DNA from: an uncultured cyanobacterium
GTDB taxonomy: Bacteria; Cyanobacteriota; Cyanobacteriia; PCC-9006; JAAUQQ01
Direction: 5' to 3'
DNA length: 64,000 nt
Assembly (NCBI GenBank): GCA_963718615.1
Contig: OY970368.1
Coordinates: 2,112,001 to 2,176,000, forward strand
Shown here: piece after piece, positions 3,817-31,204 of the stretch
Layout: each line of letters opens with the position of its first letter
How positions within the stretch are numbered: position 1 is the stretch's first letter
The notes under the pieces: generated by a model
What the model was told of the DNA's origin: nothing
Database searches by the model: none
The model's input: only the letters and a program-made list of their open reading frames with translations
Made by a program: the position numbers and the translations under genes

Positions 3817-3925
3817 AGATAAAGAGGGGAACTGTCAGATTGTCAGGTGGATTAGTTTATTTTAGCCTGCCTCTGGCTGTGAGCAGCGAGTGGGCGGAGG
3901 TAAAGAAGTTGGGAGAATGTGATTT

Positions 3926-4177
3926 CTGCGTGGATCTGCGTAGGCCTTTTGTTTGAAGATGGAATAAAGATGCGGATGGAGGGGGGGAGTAATGGTGTGA
4001 TGGGGTCGTCACCCAATCACCCCGTCACCCAATCACCCTGATACTCAACGACCCATGACCCAGACACCTGAAATACAACCGCAGACTGCTGAGGCTCGGC
4101 TGGCGGAGGCTTTGGCGTTGCGGGAGGCTGGGGATTTGGTGGGGGCGGTGGGGCGGTTGCGAAGTGGAGAGTTCTGA
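3926..4177 (+). repeat. Dispersed leader repeat, copy 2 (with a 40-aa truncated ORF at 4055-4177)
   Basis: Same sequence as copy 1; ORF MTQTPEIQPQTAEARLAEALALREAGDLVGAVGRLRSGEF*. Confidence 0.95.
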
Positions 4178-4682: not shown

Positions 4683-4926
4683 GGGCCAGTTCCTCAGTAA
4701 GCTCATCAGGCGTGGTTTGAAAAGGAGACACCTTAAAACGAATTAGGGCCTCTAGGAAGGCTTGACGGCTGACACCTGCGATTTCAGCAGCTTTAGATTG
4801 AGAAACGGTGCCAATTTCATACCATTTGACGGCAGCTGCCAAACGCATGTCTTGAACGAACTCGTCGGGTGTACTGCGGGTCACTGAAAAAACGCTTTCT
4901 GGCAAGCTTAGCTTGACTTCTATCAT
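4675..4926 (-). CDS. UPF0175 family protein (putative antitoxin)
   Basis: MRLAAAVKWYE.G.VSQSKAAEIAGVSRQAFLEAL HTH-like motif. Confidence 0.85.
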   Translation of the reverse strand: MIEVKLSLPESVFSVTRSTPDEFVQDMRLAAAVKWYEIGTVSQSKAAEIAGVSRQAFLEALIRFKVSPFQTTPDELTEELARG

Positions 4927-5009
4927 GATGAAATCAGCAGGTTTGGTTTGGTTAAGTATTCATATTTTAGCGAATGCTGGCCAATTTACGGTTTGGGGGT
5001 GTTAAGTGG

Positions 5010-5410
5010 CTGCGTGGATCTGCGTAAGCTTTTTGTTTGAAGATGGAATAAAGATACGGATGGAGTGGGTGAGTGATGGAGTAATGGTGTGATGGGGTCG
5101 TCACCCAATCACCCTGTCACCCAATCACCCTGATACTCAACGACCCATGACCCAGACCCCTGAAACACAACTGAAGACTGCTGAGGCGCGGCTGGCGGAG
5201 GCTTTGGCGTTGCGGGAGGCGGGGGATTTTGTGGGGGCGGTGGGGCGGTTGCGGGAGCTGCTGGAGGAGGCTGGGTTTGTGCGGGGGTGGATGGAGTTGG
5301 GGCGGACGTTGCGGCGGTTGGGGGAGCGAGAGGGGGCGTTGGAGGCGTTTGGGGAGGCTGAGCGGCTGGAGCCGGAGCATTTGCCAAGTCGGATTGAGGG
5401 GGCGATCGAA
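5010..5410 (+). repeat. Dispersed leader repeat, copy 3 (leads into the full-length gene at 5147)
   Basis: Near-identical to 16773-17176 up to GGCGATCGA. Confidence 0.95.
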
Positions 5411-21810: not shown

Positions 21811-23661
21811 CTATATGGGCTTGCGAGAAATAAAAGTTATAAGCTTTTGGATTTCGGAATCTTTGTTTTTTATTCGAAAATCTTCGGTATCGAATCCAAT
21901 TGTTTTCAAATTTTCAAAAATATCATTTCCAAATTCTGTATAGACAAGCGATTGACTACCATCTCCTGCAATATGATATCTTGGCTCCAATAAATGAATA
22001 TCTTTATCTCCAGATACATCAACACGATAGATAGTGCGAGCTTGTAAAGGGTGCTGTACTGGTATTGTAAATATATGATACCCACCGGGTTTCAATATAC
22101 GAAAAATCTCTCTGAAAGCCAACCAAGGATGACGAACATGTTCCATAATATCAGAAGTTATAATTAAATCAAATTTATCTTCTTCGTATGTTAAGTTTTC
22201 AAGGTTTTGACATTGAATACCATCCACAAATTCACCTTCTTCTACATCCTCCCAGTAGTATGACTGCTTATAACTCGGCAAGTCTTTAAAATAGCTTCTG
22301 AATGAACCGATTATTCCAGGCTCATAAATTGAGCAAAATTTAAAGTTTTGCTCTTTACAAAGTTCTTCGATTGAAAAAGAATTTTGCTTAGAGAAGCATT
22401 TCACTATCGCCGCTGCCTGACCTCGATGCCGAAGCGAAGCTTTGCAGTGAATACATCTATACCCCTCACGCAAAAACTTATGATTTTTATGAAAAACTTG
22501 ACTTTTTCCACAAACACTACATGAGTCATTATAACTGTGCTCTGTAGATTCTAAGAAAGTCTTTTTTATATCTACCGTCTCTTCAAAAGGAAAGCCAGAT
22601 TTAGAAAGATCTACTGATGAACTCACAATCTTTGCAGATTTCTTATTTTCATTAATTACATTTAACGAAAATAAATTATTACAAGCCTGATGAATTTCTG
22701 CTATTGGTACATCACTATTTGAAATTCTACAGTTAAAAATCATACAACTTTTAGCACCTTTACTTCCTTGCAGCAAAATTCCATAATCAGTATTATTTTC
22801 AATGCAAGAATCAGTAATGACAACACCAGATGCATTTGATACTAAAATTCCTACTTCTTTATTTTTTGTAAATTCTCCTGTTATGAATACACTACTTAAC
22901 TGATGGTTATGAGAACCACACAAAGCTAAGCCTCTCTTGCAATCGCTGGCACAGCACTTGGCAACTGCATTATGAAGAGAAGAATAATTAGAGTCTAACA
23001 TTATTCCATTGCCTGTCGATTTCTCAACTCTTGCCTCTAAGTGTATATTGGTACCACCATCAAGATGAATAGCTGAGTGCATCTTATCTAGGCCTGAATT
23101 ATAAACATAGGCACCCAAGATAAGTAAATTATCGGCTTTGCTACTCGATATTCCGCTCCAGCCGACATTGGAAGAGCTAAAATCTTCAATTTTCAAATCG
23201 CTACAGGCATTAAAATGAATACCTGTATGTAATAAGTTATTTGCTTCCAAATTTAGAAACTCAGCATTTCTCACCCGTTTGAGGTATATCGCATTGCATG
23301 TGAGCAAGCGCTTATCGTTCGGTAGTCGAGATTGATACTCTTTGTTTCCTTCAAATGAAACATTTGATATCCTTAGATATGAATTTCCTTTTTCATAATC
23401 ACTATTTGTTAGAATATGGCAATTACTGCCGGGAACAAGAGTTAACTTACTTTTGTTCTCTGGGTCTCCTTTTAGCCAGACCTTACTAGATACTACAATT
23501 GTTTTGCTTATTAAATATTCACCAGGAAGAAGCTGAATAATTAACCAATCTTTTGAGTTATTAATAGCATTTTGAATGGCAGAAGACGTTCTTTCTTCAA
23601 TTAACAATATTGTGGCATTACTCCAAAAATCATTCTGTGACGAAACTTCAGCTAATTTCAT
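21811..23661 (-). CDS. Right-handed beta-helix domain fused to CxxC-CxxC plus class I SAM methyltransferase
   Basis: PGEYLI.. beta-helix repeats; CSVCG..CIHC; FDLIITSDIMEHV, FRILKPGGYHIFTIP. Confidence 0.75.
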   Translation of the reverse strand: MKLAEVSSQNDFWSNATILLIEERTSSAIQNAINNSKDWLIIQLLPGEYLISKTIVVSSKVWLKGDPENKSKLTLVPGSNCHILTNSDYEKGNSYLRISNVSFEGNKEYQSRLPNDKRLLTCNAIYLKRVRNAEFLNLEANNLLHTGIHFNACSDLKIEDFSSSNVGWSGISSSKADNLLILGAYVYNSGLDKMHSAIHLDGGTNIHLEARVEKSTGNGIMLDSNYSSLHNAVAKCCASDCKRGLALCGSHNHQLSSVFITGEFTKNKEVGILVSNASGVVITDSCIENNTDYGILLQGSKGAKSCMIFNCRISNSDVPIAEIHQACNNLFSLNVINENKKSAKIVSSSVDLSKSGFPFEETVDIKKTFLESTEHSYNDSCSVCGKSQVFHKNHKFLREGYRCIHCKASLRHRGQAAAIVKCFSKQNSFSIEELCKEQNFKFCSIYEPGIIGSFRSYFKDLPSYKQSYYWEDVEEGEFVDGIQCQNLENLTYEEDKFDLIITSDIMEHVRHPWLAFREIFRILKPGGYHIFTIPVQHPLQARTIYRVDVSGDKDIHLLEPRYHIAGDGSQSLVYTEFGNDIFENLKTIGFDTEDFRIKNKDSEIQKLITFISRKPI

Positions 23662-23721: not shown

Positions 23722-26700
23722 TTATATCTTCTGCGCAACAAATGTGATCAATCGATGAATATCTGTATCATTTTTCTCTAATCTAAACAGTGACACCTTA
23801 AATCCAATAGATTTAAGATACTTTATTAAGTCCTCTCCATAGGAAAATTGAACCGATCGATCACTTAAGGCCTCGAGGGTATTATGCATTTGGAAGTCTT
23901 TTGTTACTCCTCCAGAAGATATAACACGCCCATCTTTTTGCTTGACTGTAAATGTTGTCTTCTCTGGAATAGGATCCGTGACTGGTATAGAGAAAATATG
24001 ATAGCCTCCAGGTCTCAAAACTCTTTGAATTTCCTTCAATGCATGAGAAGGTTGCGAAACACATTGTAAGATGTCTGAACTAAGAACCAGGTCAAATTTC
24101 TCATCACTATAAATGAGTCTTTGTAGATCTTGTATTTGAACTCCATTTACGTAGCTTCCTGGTTTACTATTCAATTGGTATGAGGATTGAGTATAGTTTT
24201 CTAGTTTGGATAAATATTTTCTCAATGGACCGATTAATCCAGGCTCATAGATTGATAATTTTCTAAAAGATTCTTCCTTGCAAAGATTTACAAGAGTAGT
24301 AGAGTTTTTCTGAGAAAAAATTCTCAGAATCACTTCTACTTGTCCTCTGTATCTCAACGATGAATTGCAGTTTTTACATTTGTATCCTTCTCGTAGGGAG
24401 CGTTGCTCTTTTTGAAATATTTGATCAGTACCACATACATTACATACTGCATGATACTCCTCTTTTAGAGGCTTGCTTTTAGAGGTTTTTTGATTTGGCT
24501 GCTCTACTACATTCTTTTGATTTCTAATCTGCTCACAGCTAGAAAGTGACAAATGATAAACTGGCGATTGTTTTAGATAATTAGTGTCTATATTATTTAG
24601 AATGGTTTTGAGGCGATTTTCCCAACTTATTTTATCAAGAAGATCAGTTCTATACTTGGTAGAATTCTCATTACTGCACATCGTATCTAATAAGTATTCA
24701 CTTATTGAGTCAACAAAGGCACTATAGTTACTTGCAATTTTCAGAATCCCCTTTAAGTCGTCAATATTTAGAATGGGTGTACTAACGATAGGAATACCCA
24801 TCGCATAATAAACATAGAGCTTCAATGGATTCATACTACGTGTTAGCTCATTGTCTAAGTGGGGAATAATACCCACATCAAAGTTCTGAATGAAAGCTAA
24901 GGATTCATCGTACGGCCTTACCCCCAGCAGATGAACATTCTCAAGGCTTGAAAGCTCAAATATTTTAGAGCTTCCATGAGCAGAACCAATGACAACAAGG
25001 TTCCAGTCTTTTCTGCTAACCGCAATATATCTCATCAGGTCCACGTCAACGCGATCTGATAAATTTCCAACATATCCAATAATAGGCCCGGAAAGAGAGG
25101 CCAACTCTTCTGGTTTCTGAAGAACTTTTGTTCTATCAAAAATTTCTGCGCCATTTTGAACAACTGTAATATTTGGGTTAATCTTCTGAAACGAACTCTT
25201 CGTTGTCTCGCAGTTTGCAAAGGCTATATTTGACAATTCAAGAGTTTGACGATAACTATCATCTAAGCGTTTAAAATACTTTGGATGAACGTCCCACTTC
25301 CGCTGATCGTCGATAATATCGGAAACAACAAAATCAAATTTAATTTCTTTTGAAATTTCTGGAAACTCAAAAACAACAGGACAAACCCATGCCATAACAT
25401 TAGAATCTATCTGTAAGCAGCAAAGTGTTTGCTTAATATATTCAATATAATTGCTTTTTTGAGGCAGATTAAAACCTAAGAAATCTTTTCCTTTCTTATC
25501 TTCTGTATAGATGAAAGTTCTTCGAAAGACATTTTGCGTATCTTGCATCTCTAAGAATCTTTCAACAGTATTAATAAATACCAAATTATTTTGACTGAAC
25601 TTTGACAAAGGACCTTTAGCAGTCTTCTTTTGTAGCTCTTCAATTGAAATAGGAGCATCAAAATGAACTATTTTTCCTATTCTCTTACTTTTAGAAAACT
25701 GCTTCAAGAGCATATCTTGCCGTCTCCCATATATGCCAGAATCATTCTGTTTCCAGAAAAATACGATATTAATAGGTTTATCTGGGGAAAACTTATATTC
25801 GATTTCCTCTGTATAGTCTTCTTGACTTAAATCTACATCTAACCTAGGCAATTTCACAGATGAACGTTTTTCTAGGAGTTCAAAGACTTGAGAGACTATG
25901 TAAGGATTCTTTTTATATTCTGACTTTGCAATCTCTAAAGAAAGCTTTATTCTCTCAGTATTTACGCAATAGCTAAATTCACTGAGAAAGTAATGTCTGC
26001 CAATTTTAGAAACAGCCAAATTTCCATTATACGAACCATAAAAGATGTCTTTAATTGACCTCTCCAATTCTTCATCAGTATTTACTGAGATAACACACTT
26101 GCTAGCAATTAGATCTTGAAGAGGTGGAACATTACTAACAATAGTAGGTATTCCCATTGCAAGTGCATCTGTAAGCTTTGCGGGTATCTGATAATTAGAT
26201 ATGGCCGATGATGGCTCTTGCAAAATACAGGCTAGATCGGCCATTGAAACAAGCTCCGGCAATCTCTCCCAAGGTTGATCAGGATTAAAATCAATTCTTG
26301 CATTTGGGTATTTCTCAAAATCCTTTAAAATTCTCTTATCTCTAATAGTTCCAATAATACACAATACGATTTTATTATCTTTAATTGACTCTAAAGCTTT
26401 GGCTATTCTATAAATACCTTTGTGAGGACGTGGTGTTCCAACAAATAGAATGACTTTGTCAGCCTCTGTATATCCAAATTCCTTTCGGATTTTATTGCGT
26501 TGAAAATTTACTGGATTGAATTGATCCTCATCTCTCGCATGCCTAACAATCAATCCTCCATATCGCTGTTGAAGCGAGATATTAGAGACTGTAATTGCAT
26601 CTGCACACGGAATTAAATTCTCACAAAAGCGAGTCCAAATTTCAGAATAAAGCTCACCTTCTTCTTGGTTTTGGAGGTCACTAATTAGATCTTTGTAAGA

Positions 26701-27162
26701 AGCAGAGCTTTGATTTTTGAAAAATGATAATTCATGATCATCAATATCTAGAATGAGTGGACAGTTACTGTAGTGCTTAATAAGAAATCCTAGAAAAAGA
26801 CTTGGAAATCTTGGTTTGCCAACATAAACATAGTCATAAAGATTATTACAAGCTAGTTCATGAGCACCTTTTATAAAAGATTTTAGATCGTCTGCTCTAA
26901 AGCTTCTAATGCTAATATCAATAGACTTGAGTGGTGGCCAAAGCTCATCTCCATAAGCAGGATGTATTGCACCAATTAATTCAACATTACCAAATCTTTT
27001 AGCCATATCTGCAAGAAGAAATGCTCGTCCAACAGGATTATGAGCTAAGTCCCAAGATACTACGGCAATTTTCGGTTTCTGGTATGGATTAGATGCCAAA
27101 ATTGGCACGCCAGATTTAATTTTGGAAAGGCTAGATGTTTTCATCTGATTGTGGTTACGCAT
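23722..27162 (-). CDS. Multidomain glycosyltransferase (two GT-B/GT4-like domains plus methyltransferase-like domain)
   Basis: FVGTPRPHKG, QIPAKLTDALAMG, IGYVGNL, NPLKLYVYYAMGIPIVST, CNVCG..CKNC, RVLRPGG. Confidence 0.8.
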   Translation of the reverse strand: MRNHNQMKTSSLSKIKSGVPILASNPYQKPKIAVVSWDLAHNPVGRAFLLADMAKRFGNVELIGAIHPAYGDELWPPLKSIDISIRSFRADDLKSFIKGAHELACNNLYDYVYVGKPRFPSLFLGFLIKHYSNCPLILDIDDHELSFFKNQSSASYKDLISDLQNQEEGELYSEIWTRFCENLIPCADAITVSNISLQQRYGGLIVRHARDEDQFNPVNFQRNKIRKEFGYTEADKVILFVGTPRPHKGIYRIAKALESIKDNKIVLCIIGTIRDKRILKDFEKYPNARIDFNPDQPWERLPELVSMADLACILQEPSSAISNYQIPAKLTDALAMGIPTIVSNVPPLQDLIASKCVISVNTDEELERSIKDIFYGSYNGNLAVSKIGRHYFLSEFSYCVNTERIKLSLEIAKSEYKKNPYIVSQVFELLEKRSSVKLPRLDVDLSQEDYTEEIEYKFSPDKPINIVFFWKQNDSGIYGRRQDMLLKQFSKSKRIGKIVHFDAPISIEELQKKTAKGPLSKFSQNNLVFINTVERFLEMQDTQNVFRRTFIYTEDKKGKDFLGFNLPQKSNYIEYIKQTLCCLQIDSNVMAWVCPVVFEFPEISKEIKFDFVVSDIIDDQRKWDVHPKYFKRLDDSYRQTLELSNIAFANCETTKSSFQKINPNITVVQNGAEIFDRTKVLQKPEELASLSGPIIGYVGNLSDRVDVDLMRYIAVSRKDWNLVVIGSAHGSSKIFELSSLENVHLLGVRPYDESLAFIQNFDVGIIPHLDNELTRSMNPLKLYVYYAMGIPIVSTPILNIDDLKGILKIASNYSAFVDSISEYLLDTMCSNENSTKYRTDLLDKISWENRLKTILNNIDTNYLKQSPVYHLSLSSCEQIRNQKNVVEQPNQKTSKSKPLKEEYHAVCNVCGTDQIFQKEQRSLREGYKCKNCNSSLRYRGQVEVILRIFSQKNSTTLVNLCKEESFRKLSIYEPGLIGPLRKYLSKLENYTQSSYQLNSKPGSYVNGVQIQDLQRLIYSDEKFDLVLSSDILQCVSQPSHALKEIQRVLRPGGYHIFSIPVTDPIPEKTTFTVKQKDGRVISSGGVTKDFQMHNTLEALSDRSVQFSYGEDLIKYLKSIGFKVSLFRLEKNDTDIHRLITFVAQKI

Positions 27163-27203: not shown

Positions 27204-29378
27204 TTACCTTGCAAGAAAACTAGATAATTTGCCTATTGTAGGAACACACTCAATCTCTCGAATTCTTTGATAGCCTGCTCTTCTAATTTCTTCGGCCTTT
27301 CGTTGTCCCGAAGAAGATTTTAGTAACCATTCAACTACTTCGCCCATCTCCTCCAGTGGACAGGAAACAAAATGTATATTCGGCTCCAACCCCGGAACAT
27401 CGTGACAAGGCTCCGTCACCACCAACGTGTTTTGCCACAACCCATGAAACACGATCCGATGCCACTCGAAATAGGGCAACTCATCCCTATGGACATTTAA
27501 TAAAATTTTGCTACGCCGACTCAGGCCAATCACCGCATCCGTATTCAATGCCTGCCCCTGCCCCTGAATAAACGGATCCCCCATGGGCGGAATATGCAAA
27601 AAGCAGCGGTACTGATGCAGCCAGGAAGCGCTTTTAGCAAAAAACTGCTCCCGCCGAGGATTCAACGTCCCCACAAAATGAAGATCAATCGGACGCTCCG
27701 ACAGCGGTGCATCAATCGCCGGACGCTGCCGCCGCACCTGCGGACTCAAACTGCGCAGCGCCAACAAATCCGGCAACGCCTCCGACCCCACAAACGGCTG
27801 ATAATCCTCCAAATACCCCAACGGCAACCACTGAGCAGGCAACCCCAACTCCCGCAAAATCGCCGCCGATTTGACATTAATATCCAAAATCAGCTGCGCC
27901 TTGCGCAAAAAGTGAAACGCCTTCGAGAACCAAGTCGTCTGGGGCTGCTCCACATTCACCATGATCGCCCCGGCCCACCAGTCCTTTTGACCCGCCCGCT
28001 GCAAGCCCTCACCCAAATAGAAAAACTCATGGGGTGCCACAATGATATGGCCATCGAGATAATCCGGCGGAGCATCCTGTTCACTCAACCGCATCGCCTG
28101 ATGTCCACAGCGCTCCAACGCCGCCGCAATCAAATCGGCAATCTCCCCAATGAAATAATTGCCCATCGAACTGCAATACACGCCGAAGGTTTGGGTTTGT
28201 GCCGTTGCGTTCTGCGCCGGACGAACGCGGTTCGTCCCTACGGGATGATCCTGGATGCAGGCTAAATAATCTGCATCGGAAGGCGTCGGTTCATACAACA
28301 GGTGGGCAAACTGCTGCGCCGAAAACGCAACCCGACCCTCCCTCGCCCCAACAGCCAAATAATGCTCCAGCGGGCAAACCCCCGTTGCTGCCACATCCGG
28401 ATTCTCATCCAGATATAATGCATGACTGAAAAACCCATGGGGAGAATGGGCCTGCGATCGCCCAAACCCATAATAATGGGCCAACGGATTCACCCCCAGC
28501 TCAGCCGCTTCCCGCGCTTGGTTCAGATAGTATCCACCATCAAACAACGGATTCGGACGATAGCCCCGCCCCGCACCAACCGTTAGGTAGTGATCCAGCA
28601 ACCGTTCCGACGAAGGGTCTTCGATCTCAACAGCATTCGCCAGCCGATAATAGTCCGGATCAAACAAATGGGTCATGGCCAATAGCCGCTTCACCAACGC
28701 CAGATCCAACAACTGCTTCGCATCCGTCAGCCTCGGTTCATCTGCCCCCAACCCAACCGCCGCCCGCGCCAACCACGCCTCAGCTTGGGTCGAGTCCCTG
28801 GGAGCCAGCAACTGCGCCAACATCAACGCCGACGCCCGATCGCCCGGTTGAATTTGCAATGCCATTTGGTAGGAGGCGATCGCCTCCTCAAACTTTCCCC
28901 GCCTGATCCGCTCCTCGGCCAGCTCCTGATAGAGCGCCACATCCCGAGGATTTTCACGAATCAACTGTTCCAAAGACTCACTCAGTTTCGCCCCCACCGG
29001 CTCCATCTCTGGGTCTAGGGTTTGGGCCTGCCGATAGGCCCCTCGCGCCGCCGCCCACCGCTGTTGCCCAGCAAACGCCATCCCCAAACTATAGTGAGAC
29101 CAAGCAAACTCCGGGTTCAGCTCAACCGCTCGCTGCAAAGCTTCCGCCGCTCCCGTCCAATCCTCCAACTCCAGCAAAACATTGCCTAAATTGTGGTGCG
29201 ACCAAGAAAACTCCGGATTGAGGGCGATCGCCTCTCGATAAGCCGCCGCCGCCTCTTCCCAATTTCCTTGCTGCCGCAACTCCTCCCCCCGAACATGCCA
29301 CTGCATCGCCTCTCGCACCGCCGGATCCGCAGACCCTTGACCTTGCTCAGCAACTTCAGCGACCGCCGGGGTTATGAC
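27204..29378 (-). CDS. TPR plus glycosyltransferase-like protein; probably entered by -1 frameshift from the upstream TPR ORF (alternative ATG at 29306)
   Basis: TPR units, LFDPDYY/HY..G repeats, FVGTLNPRR, SKILLNVHR..FEWHR; frame is open through the slippery site. Confidence 0.75.
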   Translation of the reverse strand, partial: VITPAVAEVAEQGQGSADPAVREAMQWHVRGEELRQQGNWEEAAAAYREAIALNPEFSWSHHNLGNVLLELEDWTGAAEALQRAVELNPEFAWSHYSLGMAFAGQQRWAAARGAYRQAQTLDPEMEPVGAKLSESLEQLIRENPRDVALYQELAEERIRRGKFEEAIASYQMALQIQPGDRASALMLAQLLAPRDSTQAEAWLARAAVGLGADEPRLTDAKQLLDLALVKRLLAMTHLFDPDYYRLANAVEIEDPSSERLLDHYLTVGAGRGYRPNPLFDGGYYLNQAREAAELGVNPLAHYYGFGRSQAHSPHGFFSHALYLDENPDVAATGVCPLEHYLAVGAREGRVAFSAQQFAHLLYEPTPSDADYLACIQDHPVGTNRVRPAQNATAQTQTFGVYCSSMGNYFIGEIADLIAAALERCGHQAMRLSEQDAPPDYLDGHIIVAPHEFFYLGEGLQRAGQKDWWAGAIMVNVEQPQTTWFSKAFHFLRKAQLILDINVKSAAILRELGLPAQWLPLGYLEDYQPFVGSEALPDLLALRSLSPQVRRQRPAIDAPLSERPIDLHFVGTLNPRREQFFAKSASWLHQYRCFLHIPPMGDPFIQGQGQALNTDAVIGLSRRSKILLNVHRDELPYFEWHRIVFHGLWQNTLVVTEPCHDVPGLEPNIHFVSCPLEEMGEVVEWLLKSSSGQRKAEEIRRAGYQRIREIECVPTIGKLSSFLAR

Positions 29379-31204
29379 TTTTTTGCAACCGTCGCCCCCT
29401 GCCCCTGCCCCTGCACTTCCAACGCCTTGCGATAGGCCACCAACGCCCCCGCCTGATCCCCCTGGGTCTCCAACACCCGACCGAGGTATTCGTAGGCGAT
29501 CGCCATCTTCGGCTGCAACCGCACCGCCTGCCGAAAACAAACCTTCGCCGAATCCAACTGCCCCTGCTTCACCAACGCATTCGCCAAATTGAAATACTGC
29601 TCCGCCGAAGCCCAACTCGGCTCCCGCTTAAACGCCTCAAACCAAGCCAACGCCGCCGCCTCCCGCCGGTTCGCCTGGGTCAACGCCCGCGCCAACTCCC
29701 GATATACCGCCGGTTGTTCCGGATTCAACCGCAACGACTGCTGATAATATTCGATCGCCCGCGCCCAATTCTTCTCCTCCGCCTGCAACTGACCCGAGCG
29801 CGCATAGTTCTCCGCCGATTGCAAAGCCTCCGACCCCGTAGGCTGCAACACCTGGTCCCGCCGTACCCCCTCCGCCGAAGCATCCGTCGGACGATTGGAA
29901 CGCGATCGCAACTGTTTCGACTCCTGCAACAACTTCTGGAGCAACTGATGGCCATTGGGAATCGTCTGCACCGGATTCACCGCTTCGTTCTTCGGGGTTG
30001 TTTGGGCGATCGCGCCCTCCGGATTGATCGAAATTCCCGCCTCCAACACCTTGCGATAATAGAGCGTCGCCGCCTGCCAATCCCCCTGCTTCTCCAGCAA
30101 ATCCGCCAAGGGCCGATAGGCCGCCACAAAACTGCTGTCCACCTCGATCGCCCGACGGTAGCTGGCGATCGCCTTCACCTCCTCCCCTTCCTTCAACCAG
30201 AAATTCGCCACCCGGAAATGTTCCGCCGCCGTCCCCGCCTCCGGCGATAGCACCAACGCCTGGGCCAAGGCATCCGCCGCTGCATCGGTTTTCCCCAAAA
30301 CCTCTAGAATCTTAGCCATGGGTCGATAAAACTCAGAACAGGGGCGGAGATTGATCGCCTTTTGATAGTAAAGCGCCGCATCGTCCCATTCCTGCTGCCG
30401 CGCGTAGAGACTGCCCAGATTGGCATACACCTCCGGAAACCGAGGATTCGCCAACAGTGCCCGCGCATAGTGCGCCATGGAATCAATCCCGTGGCCCATC
30501 TCCTGCAAAATATTGCCAATCAACTTGTGAGCCTCCGCCACATCCGGCGCGACCGCCAGGGCTTCCTCACAGGCGGCGATCGCCTTCTCCCACTGCTCCT
30601 GCTTCATGTAAGCCTTGGCCTGACGGATAAACACCGTCATCGCCTCCCCTTCCAGCCCCGACTCTTCCACCGCTAGGGTTCCGGTTCCCTGGGGCAAAAC
30701 CGTGATCGGCGTCGCTACAGATAGCTCTGCCTCATCGCTAGGAATGCTATCTGAGTGGATATTCTCTGGATGGGCATGATCTGGATGGGTACTCTCTTGT
30801 TGTGCCACTGCACCAGAAAGGGGTGCGTCAGAACGTGATGTACCAGAAAGTGGGCCTGAAAAGAAAGCTTGATTCATCGAATTTGCTATCGAATTTGCGG
30901 TTGTTTCCACGACTGTTTGCCCTTGAGCAATCTCATCCTCTGGAACAGGGGCTTCTCCCGGAATAGGGTCTTCTCCCTGAACAGGTTCTTCTTCTTGAAC
31001 CCGCTCCAAATCCTCAGCCGGAGCCTCATCTGCTGGGGGAGATTGAAGCTGAGCTGCGATTAAATCCAGTTCCTCCGAATCCACAATCGAAGCAATTGAG
31101 TCAGAGTCCAACGTCGTTGCAGTCGTTTCTGCGGTGACTGAATTGACCGAATTGCCTGAATTGAAATCCGAATGTCCGAGTCCCTTAAAAAAATTCACAA
31201 ACAC
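29372..31204 (-). CDS. TPR-repeat protein with long acidic disordered N-terminus
   Basis: Multiple TPRs (EVYANLGSLYARQQEW); ends GCA AAA AAG TCA TAA. Confidence 0.85.
   Translation of the reverse strand: MFVNFFKGLGHSDFNSGNSVNSVTAETTATTLDSDSIASIVDSEELDLIAAQLQSPPADEAPAEDLERVQEEEPVQGEDPIPGEAPVPEDEIAQGQTVVETTANSIANSMNQAFFSGPLSGTSRSDAPLSGAVAQQESTHPDHAHPENIHSDSIPSDEAELSVATPITVLPQGTGTLAVEESGLEGEAMTVFIRQAKAYMKQEQWEKAIAACEEALAVAPDVAEAHKLIGNILQEMGHGIDSMAHYARALLANPRFPEVYANLGSLYARQQEWDDAALYYQKAINLRPCSEFYRPMAKILEVLGKTDAAADALAQALVLSPEAGTAAEHFRVANFWLKEGEEVKAIASYRRAIEVDSSFVAAYRPLADLLEKQGDWQAATLYYRKVLEAGISINPEGAIAQTTPKNEAVNPVQTIPNGHQLLQKLLQESKQLRSRSNRPTDASAEGVRRDQVLQPTGSEALQSAENYARSGQLQAEEKNWARAIEYYQQSLRLNPEQPAVYRELARALTQANRREAAALAWFEAFKREPSWASAEQYFNLANALVKQGQLDSAKVCFRQAVRLQPKMAIAYEYLGRVLETQGDQAGALVAYRKALEVQGQGQGATVAKKS
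29378..29400 (-). promoter_or_regulatory. Candidate -1 programmed ribosomal frameshift signal
   Basis: Minus strand AGGGGG CGACGGTTGC A_AAA_AAG TCA TAA: SD-like hexamer, 10-nt spacer, in-phase slippery heptamer. Confidence 0.65.

Follow-up and report, generated by a model that had tools for sequence, protein, structure and literature searches.

The locus described here lies on the minus strand of a 64,000-nucleotide stretch of DNA from an uncultured cyanobacterium (GTDB lineage Bacteria; Cyanobacteriota; Cyanobacteriia; PCC-9006; JAAUQQ01), which corresponds to positions 2,112,001 to 2,176,000 of contig OY970368.1 (GenBank assembly GCA_963718615.1) and is referred to as the window throughout. 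Two long open reading frames (ORFs) overlap at this locus: an upstream ORF, whose frame is called the 0 frame, encoding a tetratricopeptide repeat (TPR) protein, and a −1 frame ORF that continues into further TPRs and a glycosyltransferase-like domain. The heptamer A_AAA_AAG stands at their junction. On the comparative evidence given below, the best reading of this arrangement is a maintained −1 ribosomal frameshift site, from which a TPR protein of 610 aa and a TPR-glycosyltransferase of about 1333 aa would probably both be made. The features of the junction, all on the minus strand, are the following.

31204..29372, minus strand: upstream 0-frame ORF, 610 aa, GTG start, ending ...ATVAKKS*
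29400-29395, minus strand: Shine-Dalgarno (SD)-like AGGGGG, candidate stimulator, with a 10-nt spacer (29394-29385) to the heptamer
29384-29378, minus strand: slippery heptamer AAAAAAG, read A_AAA_AAG in the X_XXY_YYZ phase of the upstream ORF
29374-29372, minus strand: 0-frame stop TAA, with the single sense codon TCA between it and the heptamer
29384..27204, minus strand: −1 frame ORF, 726 codons from the first AAA, with its stop at 27206-27204
29288..29370, minus strand: predicted extended stem-loop, candidate lineage-specific stimulator, starting 7 nt past the heptamer
29318-29316 (GTG) and 29306-29304 (ATG), minus strand: candidate independent starts in the −1 frame, the ATG being the one used by the public gene call (700-aa P0221)

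The 3′ end of the 610-aa ORF reads CAG GGG GCG ACG GTT GCA AAA AAG TCA TAA, in which GC A AAA AAG occupies positions 29386-29378 and the heptamer is in the phase of a −1 frameshift site. Read from the heptamer, the −1 frame begins KKVITPAVAEV... and its 726 codons overlap the site and reach a long conserved coding region; upstream of the heptamer the same frame is open for 81 codons, to 29615. The predicted shifted product would have 609 + 724 = 1333 aa. An initial annotation, made from the sequence alone, had described a 610-aa TPR ORF ending at AGGGGG and an in-phase AAAAAAG with a 10-nt spacer, and the coordinates read on the minus strand bear it out. It was also right that the −1 frame KKVITPAVAEV... 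is long and open and that its first ATG, at 29306, has no well-spaced ribosome-binding site: GAGAGG ends only 2 nt 5′ of this codon, and neither of the two candidate starts in the window has a well-spaced SD sequence.

The A6 run of the heptamer was also found in a second strain. A contig of run X3 (504 bases, depth 18.6, about 97% identical) spans 29017-29526 and differs from the window by 16 substitutions and by a sole indel, a 6-base deletion at 29396 in a GQ repeat. Since the only indel lies in that repeat, this second strain shares the A6 run and the broken frame with the window, and in this single comparison the tract does not vary in length between close strains as a phase-variable tract would. 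Regarding the substitutions, third positions of the 0 frame account for 4 of 5 upstream differences, and those of the −1 frame for 6 of 10 downstream differences, which agrees with a change of coding frame at the heptamer. Runs X1, X2 and X4 covered parts of the stretch outside the heptamer only. As a separate observation, the (GQ)3 repeat itself (CAGGGG units, 29396-29412, minus strand), just 5′ of the heptamer, is polymorphic, the X3 contig being one 6-base unit shorter with the frame intact.

The junction was read in 18 distinct orthologous loci. Of the source genome's 40 relatives, only G004 carries a full ortholog; the remaining ones were supplied by scanning genome and metagenome collections. 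The identical in-phase A_AAA_AAG was found in 5 of the 18 loci, whose 0-frame codons and −1-frame residues are given here.

Window: GCA AAA AAG TCA TAA; −1 frame KKVITP
L019 (=L024): TCA AAA AAG TAG; −1 frame KKVVGP
L023: GTA AAA AAG TAG; −1 frame KKVAAP
L026: GCA AAA AAG TAA; −1 frame KKVIEP
L115: GTA AAA AAG TAA; −1 frame KKVIEP

The 0-frame stop follows AAG directly in four of these loci (L019, L023, L026 and L115) and comes one codon later in the window, and the upstream ORFs of the same four are colinear homologs of the one in the window (E 4e-84 to 6e-20). Three more homologs of the upstream ORF, known as proteins only, end in ...VSVKK, ...VSLKK and ...VAAKK; a locus search with the upstream-ORF alignment returned the G004 contig only, with no DNA for P0154-P0156. 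Single uninterrupted fused ORFs were found in 11 of the 18 loci (L015 (=L030), L016, L017, L020, L021, L022, L025, L120, L121, L122 and L128). Their open frames extend over 1141-1429 codons, and the predicted 1333-aa product would be colinear with single-ORF orthologs whose open frames have 1182-1429 codons. The other two loci are broken at the A run in other ways. In L018, whose contig name suggests a long-read assembly, an A10 run would need a −1 shift, while L014 (=G004; coverage 3.5) keeps AAAAAAG TAA, and a change of one base in its local sequence would give a plain fusion or else the in-phase layout. L027 was left out because its match begins at base 23 of the contig. In the G004 ortholog, the closest with DNA, a second frame break was observed inside the third TPR block (L013, about 4912-5100; G004:C429), where one C is missing beside a GCGATCGC (HIP1-like) site, compared with GCGATCGCC CTC in the window.

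Longer A runs occur at the same linker in a mostly fused clade, as A9 in L017 (5369-5377) and A10 in L021 (5279-5288), both in frame, and as A10 in L018 (5314-5323), out of frame. Both non-coding frames stop within 0-16 codons of these runs, so that polymerase slippage there would truncate the protein. In a more distant homolog, L125 (about 3900-3990; metagenome-assembled genome of Elainella sp., C-terminal domain 42% identical), the A9 run CTT AAA AAA AAA TTG coincides with a −1 frame break that lies 26 codons upstream of the conserved C-terminal domain; this may be an error, or else another, independent site of poly-A recoding. At the protein level, a search that covered proteins of 399-1271 aa only gave 34 relatives at ≥56% identity, of which 14, including one truncated by a contig end, have 690-745 aa; a further 13 have at least 1076 aa, and 7 are partial or otherwise different.

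Judged from the alignment, the heptamer site is not a chance feature. When six loci were anchored on the heptamer, all 7 of its columns were invariant as against 5 of 66 flanking columns, with pairwise flank identities ranging from 21 to 61%; both the heptamer and the frame break are conserved among diverged orthologs. The first A of the heptamer is the wobble base of an Ala, Ser or Val codon, depending on the lineage, which places the constraint on the nucleotides and not on the protein. In addition, the heptamer is built from NNA and AAA codons that are disfavoured in the upstream ORF, since in the window only 13% of its codons end in A and Lys is encoded by AAG 20 times and by AAA 3 times.

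With respect to the −1 frame, in five of the six loci it opens only 7-31 codons before the heptamer and contains no ATG, GTG or TTG there, the window being the exception with 81 open codons and two TTG. Past the heptamer, KKV[IVA]xP is encoded in all six loci. The Pro codon located five codons after the shift site precedes all the candidate starts; it keeps CC while its third base varies (G, G, A, T, T, A). In the window, the −1-frame stretch between the heptamer and the candidate starts covers 29377-29319 (VITPAVAEV...DPAVR), and the stretch VITPAVAEVAEQGQGSADPAVR lies upstream of both of them. Across the linker stretches that were compared, stops are absent from the −1 frame in every locus and number 1-5 in each of the other two frames. 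The synonymous differences in the −1 frame versus the other two were 8 versus 3 and 3 between the window and L014, and 9 versus 6 and 2 between L019 and L026; these counts would favour the −1 frame only modestly, the stretch being short and poorly conserved. The positions of the candidate starts are not conserved, and even the closest pair does not align, with TTG at codon 16 in L019 and at codon 14 in L026.

The distribution of split and fused forms was followed in a tree of 44 chosen rows (19 from loci, 9 short proteins and 16 long proteins, after exclusion of duplicates and partial proteins), built by a quick search with support from the Shimodaira-Hasegawa-like approximate likelihood ratio test (SH-aLRT). 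The clade of the window (SH-aLRT 94) contains the window, P0222, P0224 and L014, and its four rows are all split. A second clade (SH-aLRT 85) is split in all of its nine rows (L023, P0245, L115, L019, L026, P0229, P0233, P0235 and P0248), with the heptamer in the four members that have DNA. The fused clade (SH-aLRT 92) has 16 rows, among them the A9/A10 loci, with L018 (A10) as its sole non-fused member, and the outgroups are fused. Because the split forms make coherent clades and the outgroups are fused, the split has been inherited over long distances and is not sporadic. As to whether it arose once, with reversions, or two or three times, the shared KKV..P motif leans toward one origin. The initial annotation had proposed to look for the same frame break and a conserved AAAAAAG in orthologs, and had taken uninterrupted single ORFs as a sign against a shift. 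The break and the heptamer are indeed shared by the five in-phase loci, and the 11 uninterrupted ORFs exist as well; given that the latter fall in other clades, they indicate that the fused protein is the ancestral product and do not refute the shift.

Possible stimulators were sought on both sides of the heptamer. The 3′ end of the 16S rRNA (...GGATCACCTCCTTT) would form a duplex of −9.8 kcal/mol with the AGGGGG of the window, and 24% of the 25-nt segments of the same G-rich upstream ORF reach −8 kcal/mol or lower. The 90 nt past the heptamer in the window were predicted to fold at −38.4 kcal/mol (z = −2.6; 5 of 200 shuffles as good), a prediction that the "weak G:U-rich hairpin" of the initial annotation understates, and the 3′ arm of the predicted stem covers GTG 29318 and ATG 29306. 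Elsewhere, the z value of the 90-nt fold was −0.26 in L019, −1.5 in L023, −4.1 in L026 and −3.6 in L014. A 6-bp UCUCUA/UAGAGA hairpin 10-11 nt downstream is common to L019, L026 and L115; it is weak and confounded with the conserved residues SLS..RE. A stop codon adjoining the shift site is known to act as a stimulator, as Weiss et al. reportedly described in 1987. In this regard, the nearby 0-frame stop and the lineage-specific downstream structures would be candidate stimulators only. An Rfam scan of 29150-29550 (E ≤ 10) gave no frameshift-element family above threshold, its sole match being eiav_FSE on the plus strand (29511-29548, 11.5 bits against a gathering score of 40, E 4.2).

In attention to the above, we consider it probable that the junction is a maintained −1 ribosomal frameshift site. 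The locus would then be one TPR-scaffold/glycosyltransferase gene, split at the linker into two overlapping frames. The majority of ribosomes would terminate at TAA after reading GCA AAA AAG TCA and so make the 610-aa TPR-only protein, while a fraction of them would slip back one base on A_AAA_AAG, with tRNA-Lys re-pairing to AAA AAA, and would go on through VITPAVAEV..., the third TPR block and the GT-B domain to yield a protein of about 1333 aa, colinear with the single-ORF orthologs. The analysis shows how the sequence is laid out and conserved, which folds the domains have and that relatives carry the fused architecture; the actual ribosomal shift, its efficiency and a function of its own for the short product are what we infer from these comparisons. 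The proposal of the initial annotation that two products arise by a −1 shift has gained comparative support from the five in-phase loci among 18, from the coherent clades and from the coding-type conservation of the −1 frame before any start. Apart from the heptamer, the details that its term "dnaX-type" implies are not established: strong SD pairing is confined to the window, the junctions have no downstream structure in common and the genome has two tRNA-Lys.

Several observations weigh against a frameshift site. The anti-SD duplexes of the orthologs are weaker (−4.6 to −7.8 kcal/mol) and this pairing is unremarkable outside the window, and RNAalifold applied to five junctions gave no shared downstream structure (consensus −1 kcal/mol). 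ARAGORN revealed one tRNA-Lys(CUU) and one tRNA-Lys(UUU) among 49 tRNAs in the source genome; the high shiftiness of the Escherichia coli site has been tied to its sole tRNA-Lys, and it has been suggested, in the passages of the review that deal with this site, that two Lys tRNAs disfavour slippage on AAG (Atkins et al., 2016, PMC5009743). In L014, the closest relative with DNA, the long ORF enters the A6 run one base out of phase, so that +1 would be needed, and there is the second frame break further on. Public gene calls give the two ORFs as separate genes, and the split is not needed for the enzyme, because 11 of 18 orthologous loci are plain fusions. Phase alone is not independent evidence either, because deletion of one A from an in-frame NNA AAA AAA GNN automatically gives an in-phase A_AAA_AAG. 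Lastly, an ATG, GTG or TTG is found 7-22 codons past the heptamer in all six loci, which leaves room for separate initiation or reinitiation.

These start codons in six of six loci, together with the lack of conserved stimulators (SD pairing, shared structure), the two tRNA-Lys genes and the fact that a one-base deletion from in-frame A7 would by itself create the in-phase heptamer, speak for a gene fission with separate translation, which we regard as rather unlikely. In such a case, an old one-base deletion in a poly-A run would have left a 610-aa TPR protein and a TPR-glycosyltransferase of about 700 aa, the latter starting at GTG 29318, at ATG 29306 or by termination-reinitiation after the 0-frame stop, and the heptamer would be a relic. 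The products of 690-745 aa predicted by gene callers in 14 of the 34 relatives at ≥56% identity, and the first TPR of the downstream part, which begins exactly at the ATG-encoded Met, agree with it. A relic should decay, yet the heptamer is invariant in all 7 positions across clades with near-random flanks and is made of disfavoured NNA and AAA codons. Moreover, the supposed A7 precursor reading KKV occurs in no fused ortholog, the fused loci having A9 (L017), A10 (L021) or no run there; the candidate starts are unaligned even between L019 and L026, those of the window lack a well-spaced SD and lie inside the predicted stem, and the wobble-type variation in KKV..P lies upstream of all of them. 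It must also be considered that RNA polymerase could add one A to the A6 run in some transcripts, giving a fusion protein of a sequence identical to the ribosomal one. The A9/A10 runs at the same linker in L017 and L021 (in frame) and L018 (out of frame), and the A9 at the −1 frame break of L125, point in this direction, and slippage has been described for A runs longer than 7 and for the A9 of Thermus dnaX in the relevant sections of two papers (Antonov et al., 2013, PMC3711429; Atkins et al., 2016, PMC5009743). Nevertheless, transcriptional slippage seems quite improbable at this site, where all five in-phase loci have only A6, short of the roughly 9 or more A/T expected of a slippage site, and known bacterial sites, as far as those sections describe them, need longer runs (PMC3711429, PMC5009743); furthermore, the terminal G and the exact phase are conserved, which ribosomal X_XXY_YYZ slippage needs and the polymerase does not.

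It is very improbable that the A6 is an assembly error for a true A7, or that the locus is a recently frameshifted pseudogene or a phase-variable one. Homopolymers are prone to error and mutation. Possible cases of this kind are L018 (A10, contig name of long-read style) and L014 (coverage 3.5 and two frame breaks). Nevertheless, the same A6 and the same frame are found in the X3 contig (about 97% identical, depth 18.6), and the same A6 in four other diverged orthologs from short-read-style assemblies, which makes an assembly artefact unlikely. The downstream frame is intact over 726 codons, with 57-78% identity to relatives, and the split forms are clade-wide; the invariant heptamer, the coherence of the split clades and the A6 of the close strain likewise render both an assembly error and a recent mutation unlikely. 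Besides the maintained −1 site as such, we tentatively consider a broader possibility, in which the linker would be an old, evolving recoding switch and one cyanobacterial gene family would arrive at the same pair of isoforms, TPR scaffold alone and scaffold plus enzyme, by −1 frameshifting in some clades, by polymerase slippage on A9-A10 in others and by plain fusion in the rest, with the short product serving the long one as regulator or stoichiometric partner. Inside one lineage, this would mirror the solutions that E. coli and Thermus have for dnaX.

The upstream ORF encodes a low-complexity N-terminal region followed by two TPR blocks (Pfam TPR_1/TPR_2, E about 1e-41), and its start is backed by the homologs P0154/P0155, which begin MLTNFFK.... 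Along the −1 frame ORF, the linker KKVITPAVAEV... is followed by a third TPR block, then by repeated NPNPLFD..YY motifs and finally by a GT-B glycosyltransferase-like domain. The matches to TPR_1 and TPR_2 reach 137-139 bits for the upstream ORF and 90-93 bits for the downstream one, above the Pfam threshold in both. The C-terminal domain and the downstream neighbours are located as follows.

27207..28193, minus strand: domain with the GT-B fold, spanning roughly residues 180-508 of the C-terminal query and conserved more widely than any other part of the family
23722-27162, minus strand: GT1 glycosyltransferase fused to a C-terminal S-adenosylmethionine (SAM) methyltransferase, 1146 aa, downstream neighbour
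21811-23661, minus strand: beta-helix protein with a C-terminal methyltransferase, downstream neighbour

The Pfam match near the C-terminus, Glyco_trans_1_2, is weak (E 1.3e-3, 19.1 bits against a cut-off of 25), and no NCBIfam model matched the C-terminal 508 residues. These residues were modelled with AlphaFold2 from a 15-row alignment, with a predicted local distance difference test (pLDDT) score of 84.3 and a predicted template modelling (pTM) score of 0.85. A Foldseek comparison of the model with the PDB gave 139 matches at E ≤ 1e-3, the top ones being all GT4-type enzymes; TreT, BshA, HepE of Anabaena and PimA were matched with probability 1.0, E values of 3e-6 to 8e-5 and TM (template modelling) scores to the target of 0.25-0.60. 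According to the model, the C-terminal domain has the GT-B fold of GT4-like glycosyltransferases, its two Rossmann-like domains matching those of solved GT-B enzymes. The C-terminal query has 14699 relatives at E ≤ 1e-3 among 1.84 billion representatives, many of which match only residues of about 180-492. The twelve nearest relatives (≥50% identity) have 1366, 527, 1262, 1080, 718, 1232, 1200, 971, 1205, 1252, 729 and 760 aa, which indicates that the long TPR-TPR-GT form is common. The region before the GT-B domain (28251-28730, minus strand) was observed to consist of repeated motifs of about 45 residues, NPNPLFD..YY..HY..G; this part of the query matches up to 17 separate stretches in other proteins, and no Pfam or NCBIfam family was reported for it. 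The neighbouring genes encode the 1146-aa GT1-methyltransferase, the beta-helix-methyltransferase and an FtsX/MacB-type permease, and the gene setting is one of polysaccharide or cell-surface biosynthesis.

A scan of the source genome for the same layout gave 12 sites, corresponding to nine copies of an IS1-family insertion sequence (IS), one IS3-family element, one site inside a long ORF in another frame, and the site studied here. The nine IS1-family copies (InsA zinc ribbon plus IS1 DDE) have identical 40-nt junctions with the classical −1 layout, GTA AAA AAG CTC TGA. One of these copies and the IS3-family element are located as follows.

G000:C1:1477600-1478800: IS1-family copy (L102)
G000:C1:4565700-4567400: IS3-family element (L103), HTH_Tnp_1 orfA and rve orfB, with A_AAA_AAG in the orfA/orfB overlap (...FLKKAA...)

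These elements presumably depend on shifting in this host. The gene in the window follows the logic of their orfA/orfAB arrangement, with a 0 frame that ends shortly past A_AAA_AAG and a catalytic domain encoded in the −1 frame. Unlike them, the gene is a chromosomal one of polysaccharide type and not mobile, its upstream product is a 610-aa TPR scaffold and not a DNA-binding regulator, and many of its orthologs are plain fusions.

Compared with dnaX of E. coli, as portrayed in parts of Antonov et al. (2013, PMC3711429) and Atkins et al. (2016, PMC5009743), the site has the identical A_AAA_AAG, two products that would share their N-terminus and, in the window, a G-rich SD-like element 10 nt upstream and a predicted downstream structure. 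In contrast, the shifted frame of dnaX stops at once and its shifted product is short, whereas here it is the 0 frame that stops and the shifted product would be long; AAG is read there by a sole tRNA-Lys(UUU), whereas this host has two tRNA-Lys species; and the window site belongs to no curated family of frameshift-element RNAs and its stimulators are not conserved among orthologs. The A9 slippage of Thermus thermophilus dnaX, in the account given by portions of the same papers (PMC3711429, PMC5009743), resembles the A9/A10 runs at the linker of some relatives, with out-of-frame stops within 0-16 codons, a parallel to the two routes described for dnaX, and differs from the window and the other four in-phase loci, which have only A6. 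CsoS2 of alpha-carboxysome operons is likewise a non-mobile bacterial gene for which two isoforms by −1 frameshifting are mentioned in the review (PMC5009743), although its protein family and direction are different. As for the enzyme, the C-terminal model matches the GT4-type GT-B enzymes TreT, BshA, HepE and PimA, with only 8-15% sequence identity to solved GT4 enzymes, and TPR arrays are present in both ORFs of the window.

To our knowledge, non-mobile bacterial genes with −1 frameshifting are few, the usual examples being dnaX, cdd, copA and csoS2. Literature searches and term look-ups gave no description of this TPR-glycosyltransferase shift site, and the terms "TPR" and "tetratricopeptide" have no occurrence in the main text of Antonov et al. 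(2013, PMC3711429) by term look-up; it might be listed in the cluster tables that supplement this paper and that of Sharma et al. (2014, PMC4066793). At present, the locus is annotated as two unrelated-looking "TPR proteins", which hides the predicted 1333-aa product. The fused, A6G and A9/A10 orthologs provide natural controls among relatives, and the site would test whether A_AAA_AAG shifts efficiently in a host with a cognate tRNA-Lys(CUU). If the reading as a frameshift site is true, a cyanobacterial gene of polysaccharide type would join the known examples, with the full-length enzyme as its shifted product.

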